Positions 19,549 to 50,531 of a DNA stretch of 64,000 bases are shown here, one piece after another. The notes under the pieces were generated by a model. The model was not told the DNA's origin, did no database searches, and saw only the letters and a program-made list of their open reading frames with translations. Numbering within the stretch: the stretch's first letter is position 1; each line of letters begins with the position of its first letter. Source of the DNA: an uncultured Alphaproteobacteria bacterium (GTDB taxonomy: Bacteria; Pseudomonadota; Alphaproteobacteria; RF32; CAG-239); contig CALXZJ010000001.1 in NCBI GenBank assembly GCA_944393235.1, forward strand, positions 14,096-78,095, in the 5' to 3' direction. Both the position numbers and the translations under genes were made by a program.

Positions 19549-20085
19549 ATGGAACTTTTAGAAGGACTTTTAACCAGACGTTCGGTGCGTCAATTTGCTG
19601 CGGATAAAAAAGTCAGCAAAAAAGATATTGAAGAAATCTTAAAAGCGGCATCGTACGCGCCATCGGCGCACAACAAACAGCCATGGGAGTTTGTGGTGAT
19701 TGAAGATCCTGAAAAACGGGCGGGCTTCCGAACGGTACAACCTTGGACAAGCTTTGCTAAGAACGCCTCTTGCGTGATTGTTGTGTGCGGCAACACCGAT
19801 GAAACTTTCCATCGTGAAAAAGAAAACGAACACTGGAACTTTGCCGATGTGGATTGCGCTTTGGCGGCGCAAAACATTTTGCTTGCTTGCCATGCCAAAG
19901 GTTTGGGCGCTTGTTTCTGCGGTGCAGCACCGATGCCGTTGGTGATTGACGGTGTTCGCAAATATTTGAATTTGCCGGAAAACATCCGCCCGCTGGCAAT
20001 TATCCCGATTGGTTATCCGGCAGAATCCCCCAAGCAACCGGAAAACCGCTATAATCCAGCCAAAGTCCACTGGGAAAAGTGGTAA
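19549..20085 (+). CDS. nitroreductase family protein
   Basis: LLTRRSVRQF...APSAHNKQPWEF nitroreductase fold motifs. AAGGAG RBS upstream of MELLEG. Confidence 0.8.
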   Translation: MELLEGLLTRRSVRQFAADKKVSKKDIEEILKAASYAPSAHNKQPWEFVVIEDPEKRAGFRTVQPWTSFAKNASCVIVVCGNTDETFHREKENEHWNFADVDCALAAQNILLACHAKGLGACFCGAAPMPLVIDGVRKYLNLPENIRPLAIIPIGYPAESPKQPENRYNPAKVHWEKW

Positions 20086-20136
20086 CATTTTTTTGCAATT
20101 ATAAATTATAAGGGTGGGGATAACTTACAATCTATC

Positions 20137-20500
20137 GTCATGCCACTGCCGAGCAATGCTCGGCAGTTCAGGCATCTCTTCCTTTTTTCTCTGTCATGCC
20201 TCCGAGGTGTTGAAAACACCGAGGATAAGGCATCTCTTCCTTTTTTCTCTGTCATGCCTCCGAGGTGTTGAAAACACCGAGGATAAGGCATCTCTTCTCT
20301 ATATGTGCAACAGACGCCTAACCTCGAGTGCTGCGCACTCTCAAGGCGTGACAGAGAGGAACGAGCCGACGGCCACACACACCCTCGTCACCCCACGAGG
20401 ATACGCCAGCCCCACACCCTCGTCACCCCACGAGGATACGCCAGCCTCTAACCCCGTCACCCCACGAGCCGACAACGTCGGCGAGTTTAGGGGTCTCCCC
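20137..20500. repeat. modular palindromic repeat array A (downstream of pilin-like gene 1)
   Basis: Perfect palindrome CTGCCGAGCA-A-TGCTCGGCAG at 20146..20166. 58-bp tandem repeat at 20171..20286. Hairpin repeats CCTCGTCACCCCACGAGGATACGCCAGCC x2 at 20380..20446. GAGTTTAGGGGTCTCCCC at 20483..20500. All modules recur at 48463..48680. Confidence 0.75.
20171..20286. repeat. 58-bp perfect tandem direct repeat (2 copies plus partial third)
   Basis: GGCATCTCTTCCTTTTTTCTCTGTCATGCCTCCGAGGTGTTGAAAACACCGAGGATAA repeated head-to-tail. Contains a GGTGTT-GAA-AACACC hairpin. Confidence 0.8.
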
Positions 20501-20663
20501 TCCTTATCTAAAAGCAAACTCCCGCAACTTTTGTTACGAGAGTTTTTTTAGGGGAAAATATTATTTTTTTACGGCTAGGGAACCGATAAATAATATTTCC
20601 GTTTTTTTATGCCTCAAAGCCGCGTATAGGGATTGCCGCTCTCAAGCATAAAACACTCTTATA

Positions 20664-21320
20664 TTAGTAATATTTCCAAGCCACAGCGTTGGTAGAACCC
20701 GATCCAGCACATAAACCAACAGCTTTAGTAACGGTCATCGGTGTTCTTTGAGTTGCAGTTGTTGCACCAGGAATACTTACATCATCATTGCCGTCTGCAG
20801 TGGTGGTAAAAATATTCGCTAACTTGCCACTAGGCACGCCCTTACCGCCATTAGTTGTTGCAGTACCGGCAGATATACCAATCAAGCCGGAAGCCTGACC
20901 GGAACCCCAGTCACCGGTTGCAATCGTCACACAAGCTTCAGAAGACAAACCGGCATATTCAATAATGAAAGCTTCATTATCATTTAAGGCGCGGCCACCA
21001 GCTGCAGCAATGGTTACATCACCGCCAAAGGCATTTGTAATGTCGGATGTGCTGGCTGAACCGGCATTATACATATCTTCCGGAACCACACCGAATTTAA
21101 TGGCTTGTGCATTACTTAACCCCTGATAATTACCCTGTGAAGAGAACAACGTACGGATGTTGGCAACCAACATGGAAACTTGGTCTGTTGTTTTGTTGAT
21201 TTTGTATTTGTTCATGGCTTTGGAATAACCGGCAATACCACCAACCGACAGAACGCCGATAATCGCCAAAACGCCCAACATTTCGACCATCGAACGGCCG
21301 TTTTCATTAATATGTTTCAT
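20664..21320 (-). CDS. type IV pilin-like protein (prepilin-type N-terminus), paralog 1
   Basis: MKHINENG|RSMVEMLGVLAIIGVLSVGG has Gly before a hydrophobic helix and Glu at +5, as in class III/type IV prepilins. C-terminal Cys pair. AAGGAAGG RBS. The ORF-track start at 21398 is a 26-aa over-extension. Confidence 0.7.
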   Translation of the reverse strand: MKHINENGRSMVEMLGVLAIIGVLSVGGIAGYSKAMNKYKINKTTDQVSMLVANIRTLFSSQGNYQGLSNAQAIKFGVVPEDMYNAGSASTSDITNAFGGDVTIAAAGGRALNDNEAFIIEYAGLSSEACVTIATGDWGSGQASGLIGISAGTATTNGGKGVPSGKLANIFTTTADGNDDVSIPGATTATQRTPMTVTKAVGLCAGSGSTNAVAWKYY

Positions 21321-21844
21321 AGTAACCTTCCTTTTTTGTAAGTAAAAATCCTTAAAAAAAATCGCTTTCAAAAACCAAAAGCGACCGGAAGTAGACAACT
21401 ATGACAACGATATAGCGCGGTATATTGACCGCAAGGCTTATTCTACCGCCTTCCGGTCATTTTATAACAAACAACCAGTCGGCGTATAATGTTTAACGTC
21501 CTATACTTGCAGACGCGTTGTCATGGAATGTCTAATTCCCAGACGGCCAACACAGCCATCTTGCCTATAAGCATAAAAAAAATAGCAGAAAATGTCAATC
21601 AGACAATAGGCATATAACTTTGGTCATACCTTATCAAACAATCAATAGGCAATAATGCCTTCGAGGGTGCTGTCCTTTTTCTATCGTTAAATCTCCGAGG
21701 CACTAAAAGCGCTAAAGATTTGCATCGCAAACCAAACATCATATGCTCACCTGTTTATATGTTAGAAATTTTAGCTTGCAAATTTGAAAGGTTGCCTTAT
21801 ATTCTGCATAGAATTTATAGTAATTTTTAGTTAAGGAGAATGTT

Positions 21845-47591: not shown

Positions 47592-48347
47592 TTATTCCTG
47601 TTCCAATTGCGCCATCACCTCGTCGGCGATTTCCGCATTGTGATAAACGTGTTGCACGTCGTCATCTTCTTCCAACGCGTCAATAAATTCCAAAAACTTT
47701 TTCGCCGTTTCCAAATCGGTGATTTCGGTTTTAACCATCGGTTTCCAGTCCAAACGCGAAACCGAAGGCGTACCGAATTGTTTTTCCAACGCATCGGTAA
47801 CGGCTGACAAATCATCCGGCAAAGTTTCGATTTCATGAAATTCTTCATCTGAAACCACATCATTAGCACCGGCTTCCAAAGCCGCCTCAAACATTTTATC
47901 AGCTTCTGCTGCCGCCGCCGGATATTGAATATGGCCGATTCGTTCAAAATTAAACGTCACCGAACCACTTTCACCCATCGCACCGCCACGCTTACCGAAA
48001 ATCGTGCGGACATTGCCGGCTGTACGGTTTTTATTATCAGTCAAAGCTTCAACAATAACAGCGGCTTTGTTGGGCGCATAACCTTCATAACGCATGCTGA
48101 CAAAATCAGCGCCGCCGGCAGTTTGCGTAGCTTTGGCAATAGCACGTTCAATATTGTCTTTGGGCATACTTTCCGCACGTGCGGCTTGAATCGCCAGACG
48201 CAAGCGCGGGTTTTTATCAGGCTCCGGCAAGCCGCTTTTGGCAGCCACCGTAATTTCTCGAGCCAATTTGGCAAACACACGGGCTTTTTTGGCGTCTTGT
48301 GCGCCTTTACGATACATAATATTTTTAAACTGCGAATGTCCGGACAT
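47592..48347 (-). CDS. yebC: YebC/PmpR family DNA-binding transcriptional regulator
   Basis: MSGHSQFKNIMYRKGAQDAKK N-terminus. Conserved yebC-ruvC adjacency. Confidence 0.9.
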   Translation of the reverse strand: MSGHSQFKNIMYRKGAQDAKKARVFAKLAREITVAAKSGLPEPDKNPRLRLAIQAARAESMPKDNIERAIAKATQTAGGADFVSMRYEGYAPNKAAVIVEALTDNKNRTAGNVRTIFGKRGGAMGESGSVTFNFERIGHIQYPAAAAEADKMFEAALEAGANDVVSDEEFHEIETLPDDLSAVTDALEKQFGTPSVSRLDWKPMVKTEITDLETAKKFLEFIDALEEDDDVQHVYHNAEIADEVMAQLEQE

Positions 48348-48462
48348 TTTTCATATTCTCCTAAAAAACTGTTCTTTGTAAGCTGCTTATAAACCATGAC
48401 ATTGTTTTCGGCAACATTTTTTTTCATGCAAAACAAAAAAATTATTTTCCGCCACATCATCC

Positions 48463-48680
48463 ACAACCCAACCTCATCACCCCATGAGGATACGTCAACC
48501 CCTAACATCCTCACCCCACGAGGATACATTAGCATCCGAGTTTAGGGGTCTCCCAAAGGACGCCTTAATCGCCACGTAATAGCGCGTCGGTGGCGTGACA
48601 GCACAAAACGTCATGCCACTGCCGAGCACTGCTCGGCAGTTTAGGCATCTCTTCCCTTGTGCGTGCAACAGCCGCCCTGC
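48463..48680. repeat. modular palindromic repeat array B (downstream of pilin-like gene 2)
   Basis: CCTCATCACCCCATGAGG and CCTCACCCCACGAGG hairpins. GAGTTTAGGGGTCTCCC at 48538..48554. Palindrome CTGCCGAGCA-C-TGCTCGGCAG at 48619..48639. GGCATCTCTTCCC and TGTGCGTGCAACAG. Same modules as array A in a different order. Confidence 0.75.
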
Positions 48681-48742
48681 GTAATAAAAATAGAACCGGC
48701 AAGCCGCCCCTAAAATTAACTTATTTGCCTTTTTTAACAACA

Positions 48743-48772
48743 AAAGACTCCCTTGCAAAAAGGGAGTCTTTT
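48743..48772 (-). terminator. rho-independent terminator 28 nt downstream of pilin-like gene 2
   Basis: 11-bp stem AAAGACTCCCT / AGGGAGTCTTT with a 7-nt loop and flanking T-rich sequence. Confidence 0.6.
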
Positions 48773-48799
48773 GTTTCGGTAAAAACCTAACCAATCGGC

Positions 48800-49456
48800 T
48801 TAGTAGTATTTCCAAGCCACCACATTGGTAGAACCATCACCATTACAAGCAGCAACGGCATTGGTAATTGTCATCGGTGTCGGGTAAGTAGCATCACCCG
48901 GAATAGCTATTGCCGCAGTACCAGTGCTACCGGAAGTATAAATTGTATCCAACGCGGTACCAACACTTGACAATTCACCGGCTTCCGCATTTTCATCAGC
49001 ACCGGCAGTAATAGCAATCAAACCGGAACCTTGACCGGAACCCCAGTCACCGGTGGCAACCGTCACACAAGCTTCAGATGTCAAGCCGGCATATTCGATA
49101 ATGAAAGCTTCATCAGCCTGACCAGCACGAGCCGGAGAAGCTTCAATTGTCACTGCACCGTTAAAAGCATTGTGCATGCTCAAACCACCTGAAGAACCGG
49201 CTTCATACATATCTTCCGGAACCACACCGAATTTAACCGCTGCACTATTGTCCAAACCGTCATAATTGCCCTGTGAAGAGAACAATGTACGGATGTTGGC
49301 AACCAGCATGGAAACTTGGTCTGTTGTTTTGTTGATTTTATATTTGTTCATGGCTTTGGAATAACCGGCAATACCACCAACCGACAGAACGCCGATAATG
49401 GCCAGAACGCCTAACATTTCGACCATCGAACGGCCGTTTTCATTAATATGTTTCAT
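48800..49456 (-). CDS. type IV pilin-like protein (prepilin-type N-terminus), paralog 2
   Basis: First ~65 codons nearly identical at the nucleotide level to 20664..21320. Conserved EAFIIEYAGL...TGDWGSGQ and C-terminal VAWKYY blocks are separated by divergent segments. Confidence 0.7.
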   Translation of the reverse strand: MKHINENGRSMVEMLGVLAIIGVLSVGGIAGYSKAMNKYKINKTTDQVSMLVANIRTLFSSQGNYDGLDNSAAVKFGVVPEDMYEAGSSGGLSMHNAFNGAVTIEASPARAGQADEAFIIEYAGLTSEACVTVATGDWGSGQGSGLIAITAGADENAEAGELSSVGTALDTIYTSGSTGTAAIAIPGDATYPTPMTITNAVAACNGDGSTNVVAWKYY

Positions 49457-49730
49457 AATATTTTCCCCTAAAAAAATATTTCTGTTTACACTTTACATTA
49501 AAAACTATACTGCAAAACATCAATCCCGGCAAGCCTATCTTTAGTCATAAAGAAAGATATATAACCTTATTATCTGGATTAACCCACACAGTACATACCA
49601 AACTGAACATAGTCTTAACTTTCTTAAAAAAGCTTTAATTTTATCTGACTTTTTAAGACAACGGACTTGACTTAAACGCTTAATGTTATACTATCCTGCC
49701 ATACTTGAGATAAATAATTAAGGAGCAAAA

Positions 49731-50531
49731 ATGACTTTTGAAGAACTCGGTTTGAGCGAACAAACCATTAAAGCCATCAAAGAACTTGGCTTTGAATGCC
49801 CGACCACCGTACAAAAAGATGTTATCCCCTCTGTTTTATCCGGCAAAGATATATTTGCCATTGCCCCCGGTCGTTGCGGCAAAACCTGTTCTTATGTTTT
49901 TCCGCTTATAGACATCATCTCCCGCAAACAAGGGCAAAATATCTTGATTATAACTGCCGATTCCAAACAATCGGTTATTGTTTCTGACCGCTTGGCAATC
50001 TTCAATAAATATCACGAAATTAATGAAGAAACTCTGCAGGAAAATACCCAAGACATCAACAATGAAGCCAATGTGATTATTGCCGCACCGGATTTGCTTT
50101 TAGACATTGCCGCCGAAGGCAAAATCGACCTTTCCAAAATCAACATTTTGGTAGTTGATGATATCAATCTCATTAAAAAGAAACACCAATTGTCAAACTT
50201 AGAAAAAGTGTTAGAAATGCTCCCGGCTGAAAAACAAAACATTGTTTTTACCAACCGCCGCTCCAAAGAAACACAAGATATTTTAGATAAAATATTAAAA
50301 ACCCCGGCAGAAATCAAAGTTGACCGTGCCAAAGAAGATGAAGCTTCTTTTGAAGTTTCTGCCGCCGACAAAACAAAAACAGCAGACAAACAAACTGTTC
50401 CAACCCCGACAGCACCCAAACCACAGGTTGATCAAGAAGCTGTCAGCTTAATGAACCAATATAAAACTTTTGGTGATAAAACACCTGCTTTTCTGCTGGT
50501 AAAATGCGAGCTGGCACAAAACGAAAATTAA
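49731..50531 (+). CDS. DEAD-box helicase-like protein, degenerate (RecA-like domain 1 only, low-complexity C-terminus)
   Basis: Q-motif/motif I-like region (PTTVQKDVIPSVLSGKDIFAIAPGRCGKT). DEAD replaced by VVDD. No second helicase domain. K/E/T/P-rich tail. AAGGAG RBS. Confidence 0.55.
   Translation: MTFEELGLSEQTIKAIKELGFECPTTVQKDVIPSVLSGKDIFAIAPGRCGKTCSYVFPLIDIISRKQGQNILIITADSKQSVIVSDRLAIFNKYHEINEETLQENTQDINNEANVIIAAPDLLLDIAAEGKIDLSKINILVVDDINLIKKKHQLSNLEKVLEMLPAEKQNIVFTNRRSKETQDILDKILKTPAEIKVDRAKEDEASFEVSAADKTKTADKQTVPTPTAPKPQVDQEAVSLMNQYKTFGDKTPAFLLVKCELAQNEN

Follow-up and report, generated by a model that had tools for sequence, protein, structure and literature searches.

The noncoding stretch at positions 20,137-20,500 of a 64-kb window (the whole segment of DNA analyzed, from an uncultured alphaproteobacterium) lies on the 3′ side of a type IVb major pilin gene and is an intergenic mosaic array, in the style of the Neisseria intergenic mosaic elements (NIMEs) and of the bacterial interspersed mosaic elements (BIMEs), of one family of oriented, asymmetric DNA hairpin repeats. 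All of its modules are copies, fragments, or tandem duplications of one unit of ca. 55 nt, the architecture of which is kept through compensatory change, and a second array of the same family stands behind a paralogous pilin gene (pilin 2). With good confidence, the stretch can be assigned to a DNA-level repeat family of the class that comprises the repetitive extragenic palindromic (REP) sequences and the NTS hairpins cut by the Ssn nucleases of Neisseria, rather than to an RNA or a pilin-mRNA element. The full explanation that we favor, to which our analysis of the sequences gives a probability of about 0.5, is that of a hairpin-repeat family acting as DNA, recognized by an Ssn-type nuclease and shaping pilin recombination. 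By analogy, and taking as a model the NTS and dRS3 repeats around the surface-antigen genes of Neisseria, (i) the array elements would act at the DNA level, (ii) an Ssn-like nuclease encoded elsewhere in the genome would recognize the folded strand, and (iii) the arrays would be recombination hot spots that influence how the flanking pilin alleles recombine or are replaced through transformation, whether by cutting incoming single strands, by offering conserved homology, or by both.

Modular Composition of the Arrays

A first-pass annotation had described the stretch as a set of four discrete modules and had proposed a dispersed, modular palindromic repeat family of the REP/miniature inverted-repeat transposable element (MITE)-like class. 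The class assignment stands and all four modules are present in the window, none of them being expected by chance; nevertheless, the modules are not separate kinds of element but whole, truncated, or duplicated copies of the one unit. They comprise (i) module 1, a palindrome first given as 10+10 bp, which actually reads 11+1+11 (ACTGCCGAGCA-A-TGCTCGGCAGT, 20145-20167) and sits inside GTCATGCC...GGCAT, with any match in shuffled sequences found 0 times out of 100; (ii) module 2, a 58-bp unit in perfect tandem (2.2 copies, 20170-20297); (iii) module 3, a hairpin repeat that is real in the form of a 35-nt unit, CACACCCTCGTCACCCCACGAGGATACGCCAGCC (2.6 copies, 20378-20468), these repeats being truncated 5′ halves of a third unit subtype; and (iv) module 4, GAGTTTAGGGGTCTCCC (20483-20499), which is the 3′ end, GAGTTTAGGGGTCTCCCC, of the complete unit h.

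The recurrence of the modules 28 kb away, within 48469-48676, holds for modules 1 (48609-48658), 3 (48469-48535), and 4 (48538-48554), which keep the orientation of locus 1 in a different order, whereas module 2 is represented there by its 13-nt 3′ end only; no further module copies occur in the 64 kb beyond the two arrays. Fold prediction, suggested at the time as a check, shows that both array strands fold far better than shuffled sequences (z −4.9 to −7.8). The open reading frame (ORF) at 20114-20551 is not a gene, as had been supposed: a six-frame composite query of the array against 5.8 billion proteins returned nothing at E ≤ 1, and hence no array miscalled as a gene elsewhere.

Architecture and Covariation of the Repeat Unit

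With all copies set in one orientation, the unit follows the grammar yTCTG-TCA-N1N2-CC, an interior of 22-28 nt, and GG-N2′N1′-TC-T. The 5′ flank is pyrimidine-rich and ends in (C/T)G, whereas T(C/G)TT comes after GG-N2′N1′-TC on the 3′ side. The closing helix comprises 5 bp, A-N1-N2-C-C paired with G-G-N2′-N1′-T, preceded by an unpaired 5′ (C/T)GTC and directly followed by an invariant C; the interior contains its own 6-bp hairpin together with a 3-nt bulge and ends in ..GAGGTTA or ..AGTTYA. Among the aligned units, T9, C10, and A11 never vary, and at least 90% of the units carry G8. Four types of closing pairs were catalogued, TG/CA, CG/CG, CC/GG, and TC/GA, the last in L060 (L numbers designate related loci fetched from other genome records). 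In the array of L045 (480-740), the reverse strand carries the unit GTCATTGCGAGGCAT, and a CCCCCTA...TAGGGGG unit is found as well, so that more closing-helix types exist than the four catalogued.

The variable positions of the closing helix are always complementary, a property imposed by the search pattern. On the other hand, the inner helix, which was not selected for, is paired in 81.5% of cases, displays double changes at 6/6 pairs, and keeps the same register across interiors of quite different sequence. Its covariation score reaches 0.484, compared with 0.16 in shuffles (0/500 as high) and 0.04-0.10 after sliding of the partners. Folding with DNA parameters was applied to seven of the eight window units and gave one common single-stranded DNA (ssDNA) shape for all seven (z −0.6 to −6.4): four nucleotides stay unpaired at the 5′ end, the closing helix comes next, and a bulge of 3 nt on the 3′ side separates it from the inner helix.

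Distribution of the Arrays and Association with Pilin Genes

A covariance model of the unit (CM R1) was run on the 64-kb window, with filters off, and on ca. 250 kb of related loci. The window contains eight full units, all of them in the two arrays, with the next match at E = 1.2, and in the related loci units occur inside arrays only; matches outside the training set include L060/61, L047 (10820), L021 (6491), and L045 (569). Arrays are present at five distinct pilin loci, including (i) locus 1 of the window, with L001, L003, and L047, (ii) locus 2, with L004-7 and L053-55, (iii) L048, (iv) L060/61, and (v) L035, in which the array is upstream of the pilin gene. The same search detected no array at five other pilin loci, L049-51, L052/L071, L056-59, L065-67, and L068-70. 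Arrays thus occur at 5/10 pilin loci against 0 of ca. 150 other intergenic regions in the same DNA (rough Fisher p ≈ 3e-7), a comparison that uses an estimated number of intergenic regions and loci retrieved for the most part by way of their pilin gene. Among the loci found through the repeats instead, the L035 array adjoins a pilin gene, the L045 array is located between aldolase and thioesterase genes with no pilin, and the contigs of L021 and L024 end within or near the array. The proposed tie to pilin genes therefore survives as a strong association within the sampled DNA, not as an exclusive one, given the L045 array and the five pilin loci that lack arrays.

Broader scans gave few matches. 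A metagenome scan for unit c returned one contig, L045, and a strict-pattern scan of genome collections gave one or two matches per related metagenome-assembled genome (MAG), with a pattern that misses known variants and from assemblies that lose repeats. The latter scan also returned ca. 30 matches in coding DNA, which are not evidence of wide distribution because their count is near the chance expectation from the pattern length. Viral-contig scans for four modules yielded one probable chance match and nothing else, and therefore indicate no phage link. The contigs encoding the same proteins are metagenome assemblies and MAGs labeled uncultured Alphaproteobacteria, and the pilin family is very large and variable (more than 6,400 matches).

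Variation of the Arrays among Strains

The comparison with relatives confirms that unit content is polymorphic between strains. Whole units distinguish relatives that share ca. 96% identity across the surrounding 6.7 kb, the differences including (i) one unit b instead of two, as in the same-species relatives L001 and L047, (ii) deletion of half of unit a, and (iii) replacement of unit c by a type d interior at the same position, again in L001 and L047; the junctions of these rearrangements are at short shared sequences. At locus 2 the truncated unit is present in two to five copies among strains, and strains 99.7-99.8% identical over the surrounding 6.7 kb keep the same length of locus 2, with no rearrangement. 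Units occur in both orientations within one array, and a block of ca. 130 nt formed by b(+) and c(−) recurs at 93-95% identity in the window, L024, and L035, with unrelated flanking sequences. In L048, direct copies of one unit (9602 and 10890) bracket the pilin gene and its leader; a reading of these copies as inverted repeats around the pilin gene was rejected because they are direct. The arrays probably add to the frequent breaks of metagenome assemblies at the pilin loci of this group.

Relationship to the NTS, SRM, and dRS3 Repeats

The dRS3-like ends of the units, together with a literature search with GTCATTCCCGC, led to the description of the Ssn nucleases by Chenal et al. 2025 (PMC11893778). 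There, NTS is defined as CGTCATTCCCGCGMAVGCGGGAATCYRG and generalized to Ssn-related motifs (SRM), repeats reported to be widespread. The substrate of SsnA, a 94-residue single-domain GIY-YIG protein, is the forward strand in its folded ssDNA form, which the enzyme binds and cleaves at a position a few nucleotides upstream. The genes of such nucleases (GIY-YIG group cd10448) are often flanked by the repeats, which number tens to hundreds of copies per genome. Binding depends most on the cytosine that directly follows the NTS palindrome, whereas the three nucleotides upstream govern cleavage, and altering the sequence of the palindrome while keeping the hairpin abolishes SsnA activity (PMC11893778). 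In addition, SsnA reduces transformation by NTS-bearing DNA, and NTS and dRS3 repeats cluster near important, variable surface genes (PMC11893778).

The units described here resemble NTS/SRM in (i) the unpaired 5′ (C/T)GTC, the palindrome bounded by A...T, and the C directly after it, (ii) their extragenic, oriented, and non-randomly clustered location beside variable surface-related genes, with eight units in two arrays per 64 kb, and (iii) the formation of a hairpin as ssDNA, a matter of predicted folds in the present case. The SRM 5′ block HGTCWY is found in 20/21 aligned units (TC and A being set by the search pattern, H, G, and Y not), and the 3′ block RNCYNB in 21/21 (C being set by the search pattern, Y and B not). 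On the other hand, the units differ from SRM by a core of ca. 43 nt instead of 28 nt, with a 3-nt bulge and a second, highly variable hairpin, by four covarying types of closing pairs, and by their arrangement in tight mosaics with truncated and tandemly duplicated copies.

Several of these comparisons weigh against an Ssn-type system. The complementarity of the closing helix is not independent evidence for it, because the search pattern required that complementarity. The complete SRM pattern, HGTCWYN(0-2)YYVSBRHN(0-5)WNVSBRGN(0-2)RNCYNB, which when checked by hand does match the Neisseria NTS, has no match in the window, in 17 loci, or in the Chitinophagaceae arrays described below; it fails because the interior here is a longer one, a second helix, not a short loop. 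The single helix of SRM comprises 7 bp, whereas the units here combine a 5-bp closing helix with a second helix. Because SsnA is strict for sequence, the four closing-pair types and at least seven interiors would call for a tolerant enzyme or for several. The 64-kb window and the fetched related loci contain no GIY-YIG (ssn) gene, an absence that says little for a single-copy gene. Finally, the one adjacency of such repeats to a GIY-YIG gene is at a single locus in a different phylum, with the GIY-YIG assignment made by PF01541.

That locus, which also supplies one independent line of support for the Ssn explanation, belongs to the Chitinophagaceae MAG STL-BAC26, the only unrelated genome with clustered matches in the scan. 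STL-BAC26 carries long tandem arrays of 31-38-nt units, TTGTCATGCC-GAGGAACGA-GGCATCTCTTC (TTGTCATGCC-N9-GGCATCTCTTC), in L014 (6995-7518) and L040 (18-442), the termini of which are identical to those of the units here. In L040 the array ends 54 bp from an ORF (496-846) encoding a 116-residue single-domain GIY-YIG protein (PF01541, 2e-13), with a degenerate unit on its other side. These arrays and the GIY-YIG gene probably form an Ssn/SRM system that the published SRM pattern misses. As that pattern misses the two-helix form, pattern-based censuses probably undercount the family.

The arrays also resemble the dRS3 repeats and the NIMEs, the latter reportedly described by Parkhill et al. in 2000: in either case, short units with small palindromes at their ends make up intergenic mosaics that are enriched beside surface-antigen genes differing among isolates, the pil loci being among them, and for each a role in promoting or shaping recombination has been proposed. 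The dRS3 palindrome reads ATTCCC-N8-GGGAAT, and the nearest form in the present family is TCATCCC...GGGATC in L060. The hosts differ, dRS3 and NIMEs being found in Betaproteobacteria, whereas the arrays described here are in Alphaproteobacteria, beside type IVb pilins and with no silent pilS-like cassettes seen.

Hairpin-repeat mosaics beside surface-antigen genes are therefore already known from Neisseria; the new features are units that are longer and contain two helices, closing pairs that covary, and an arrangement in compact arrays beside the type IVb pilin genes of an uncultured alphaproteobacterial lineage. The Neisseria pattern of hairpin mosaics around a hypervariable pilin is repeated in an unrelated lineage, a parallel suggesting that such repeats are connected in a general way with surface-antigen gene turnover; the description of the Ssn nucleases, with their hairpin repeats, itself dates only from 2025. 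A bolder and rather improbable proposal is that the two-helix units form a distinct branch of ssDNA-hairpin repeats which, with a cognate nuclease, would bracket pilin genes as exchangeable cassettes and set the boundaries and the rate of allele replacement. If true, this would represent a surface-antigen variation system in uncultured Alphaproteobacteria, parallel to that of Neisseria and separately evolved.

Alternative Explanations

The arrays share with classical REP/BIME elements the extragenic palindromes clustered in alternating orientation, and they could be such elements in the form of REP doublets forming hairpins (REPINs), mobilized by REP-associated tyrosine transposases (RAYT), with any effect on the neighboring genes incidental. 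RAYT-associated REPs typically start with GTAG or GTGG; the invariant 5′ tetranucleotide here is GTCA, and the invariant positions fit NTS/SRM better. In addition, no transposase is found among the called genes beside the arrays in the fetched loci, and the high copy number of REPs is not seen. The likeness extends to the clusters between convergent genes, to the inverted doublet shared across genome records, and to presence or absence between strains, and the b(+)/c(−) tail-to-tail doublet of ca. 130 nt with 13-nt inverted ends (TCTCTGTCAYGCC) is comparable to the REPIN design (PMC3116915, PMC3337134); however, the units here combine a variable interior with conserved ends, the reverse of REP. 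We regard mobilization by RAYT as unlikely.

Dedicated pilin recombination or gene-conversion signals, existing on account of pilin variation and resembling the Sma/Cla and RS repeats of the Neisseria pil loci, would account for arrays at both window pilins and at half of the pilin loci overall, for the direct unit copies that bracket the pilin gene and leader of L048, for the position of pilin loci at synteny breakpoints, and for the size and variability of the pilin family. At the Neisseria pilE/pilS loci, Sma/Cla and RS1-RS3 serve RecA-dependent gene conversion from silent copies, and they share with the present arrays the status of conserved repeats 3′ of pilin genes that are common to the pilin loci of one genome. 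Here, however, the pilins are two expressed-looking paralogues without silent cassettes (a repeat search of the window gave no pilin-derived repeats beyond the two genes), five pilin loci lack an array, the L045 array has no pilin gene as a neighbor, and the same termini recur in the Chitinophagaceae genome in other contexts. A role confined to pilin conversion is accordingly quite unlikely. The hypothesis of inert debris, left by a segmental duplication of a pilin gene with its 3′ flank and later scrambled, agrees with the paralogy of the pilins, which are encoded on the minus strand at a distance of 28,136 bp from each other, but it is extremely improbable: no relationship is seen between the two loci in the sequence right behind the stop codon or in the terminator, the units are 94-100% identical compared with 73-78% for the 3′ halves of the pilin coding sequences, the same units are present in other genome records in unrelated contexts, and compensatory changes have preserved the hairpin architecture.

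A structured RNA, either a small RNA gene running from the leader motif to a terminator or a 3′-untranslated stabilizer or insulator of a neighboring gene, finds some support in the conserved leader with TTGCAA ahead of arrays in four genome records, in the terminator after the array on the plus strand in the window and L035, and in the strong folding of both strands. It is nonetheless very unlikely, considering that (i) the window has no Rfam 15 match at gathering thresholds, and those at E ≤ 5 are at chance level only, (ii) both unit orientations occur in one array and the leader is inverted in L024, (iii) whole units are gained or lost between strains ca. 96% identical, (iv) no promoter-like site is found upstream of locus 2, and (v) the pilin terminators come before the arrays. 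The mismatches in the stems comprise 4 G-T and 11 A-C, with no excess of G-T, so that this test of the strand is uninformative and, if anything, argues against selection at the RNA level. The role of pilin terminator or mRNA stabilizer that had been suggested for the modules is rejected because the arrays lie beyond the terminators of both pilin genes; judged from the sequence, only read-through of the terminator would bring them into the pilin mRNA.

Several narrower candidates were also rejected. A sponge RNA resembling CsrB/RsmZ was excluded by inspection, the GGA motifs being few and located in stems. Integron attC sites were discarded: GCCTAAC is present in unit c with no GTTRRRY partner (R′ core), the orientations are mixed, and no ORFs are found between units. 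A DNA-uptake sequence was dismissed, there being no other copies in 64 kb. A search of the window for tRNA and tmRNA genes found none.

Organization of the Two Loci

The gap at 20086-20663 separates two convergent genes, a nitroreductase gene (19549-20085, plus strand) and pilin gene 1. The placement of the array directly behind pilin 1 was right as to the side and wrong as to the distance: its edge is 164 nt from the pilin stop codon (20664), past the pilin terminator, and ca. 50 nt from the nitroreductase stop codon (20085). At locus 2, pilin gene 2 is followed by 452 bp of noncoding DNA and then by yebC and ruvC, the array being located between the pilin 2 terminator and the likely yebC promoter. 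The two pilins are 71% identical, with residues 1-65 identical. At every locus viewed (the window, L047, L048, and L060) the pilin stop codon is followed by conserved 3′ hairpins, then by the intrinsic terminator, and finally by the array; the stem of the pilin 1 terminator is perfect in L001 and L003. The individual features are compiled in Table 1.

Table 1. Features of the two pilin-associated arrays and of their immediate surroundings, in window coordinates
Feature	Positions	Strand	Properties and evidence
Leader motif: T-run, GCAATT..TAAA..GGTGGGGATAACTTACAA	20088-20130	+	Abuts array; also at the arrays of L001, L047, L021, and L035
Unit a, closing pairs TG/CA	20130-20184	+	Holds the 11+1+11 palindrome (module 1); CM R1 56.2 bits
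Two identical units b (module 2)	20186-20242 and 20244-20300	+	Tandem-repeat and CM matches
Unit c, closing pairs CG/CG	20305-20359	−	Absent from the first-pass annotation; best CM match, 66 bits
Two tandem truncated units, CC-type 5′ half TCACCCC-ACGAGGATAC... (module 3)	20378-20448	+	Repeat search
Complete unit h, closing pairs CC/GG	20449-20503	+	CM 51.6 bits; ssDNA fold z −3.0
Intrinsic terminator of pilin 1	20516-20545	−	13 pairs, T/A runs on both sides; separates pilin transcript from array
Type IVb major pilin gene 1	20664-21320	−	218 aa; Pfam PilS N-terminal 2.1e-16, Bundlin 3.9e-13
Truncated CC-type unit, locus 2	48469-48502	+	Two to five copies among strains
Unit i, closing pairs CC/GG	48503-48558	+	CM 50.8 bits; inner stem perfect in L053
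Unit g, closing pairs CG/CG	48551-48606	−	CM 44.4 bits
Unit a′	48603-48657	+	94% identical to unit a; CM match
Degenerate 3′ end of another unit, GGCGGCTGTTGCAC on minus strand	48660-48676	−	Read by eye, matched to 20305-20318
Bidirectional terminator hairpin between pilin 2 and array	48741-48775	.	Perfect stem GACTCCCTT/AAGGGAGTC, folded; missed by a simple terminator scan
Type IVb major pilin gene 2	48800-49456	−	218 aa; Pfam PilS 4.3e-19 and Bundlin

Unit a is predicted to fold as ssDNA with −15.9 kcal/mol (z −6.2), and compensatory variants of it are found in L035. In L024 the leader motif stands in reverse orientation at the distal end of the array, and a search of the window for a second copy found none. 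The T-run followed by GCAATTTTAAAGAGTCTGGTGGGGATAA is observed in the window, in L021 (ca. 6695), in L024 (ca. 433), and in L035 (ca. 1674); TTATCCCCA is one mismatch off a DnaA box. Candidate roles of the leader motif are those of a promoter, a protein-binding site, and a terminal inverted repeat.

Additional Observations at the Pilin Loci

A conserved 5′ leader of ca. 250 nt is located upstream of pilin 1 (21321-21610, minus strand) and of its orthologues, including L048 (9710-10000), L049 (9460-9750), L052 (9710-10000), L060 (2710-3000), and L056 (2210-2500), and is absent from pilin 2, L065, and L068. It comprises a promoter-like TTGACW-N17-TATGCT and several helices with compensatory changes, ending in a stem-loop (GGTCGCT...AGCGATTTTTT) just ahead of the ribosome-binding site. 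The leader, which has no Rfam match, resembles a riboswitch or attenuator of a kind not yet described.

In the 3′ flank of pilin 1, the 22-nt sequence TTTTTTTAGGGGAAAATATTAT (20543-20564) is the exact reverse complement of the region of the ribosome-binding site and start codon of pilin 2 (49455-49476). In addition, TTAGGGGAAAATATTAT(G) is kept in the pilin 3′ flanks of L047, L048, L049, L052, and L060, within an AT-rich hairpin.

The synteny breakpoints at pilin loci are exemplified by the identical pilin P0034, which follows rplM-rpsI in one contig and an aldolase gene in others (L056 versus L057/L058). A segment comprising a DEAD-helicase gene and the pilin gene is flipped relative to yebC between the window (47592-50531) and L065/L068, and the window array is located at that junction. 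In L071 (11298-13142), a gene of the GmrSD family (type IV restriction) is inserted directly 3′ of the pilin gene relative to L052, which is a further indication of an insertion hot spot in the pilin 3′ flank.

L049 (14505-15275) contains, in an intergenic gap of 770 bp, two direct copies of ca. 300 nt of a GC-rich, structured-looking element (..CTGTCGCCGATTGGCGGCGGTGTC..CTCCTTGATAAGGGGAG..), each ended by a terminator, which may represent paired small-RNA genes.

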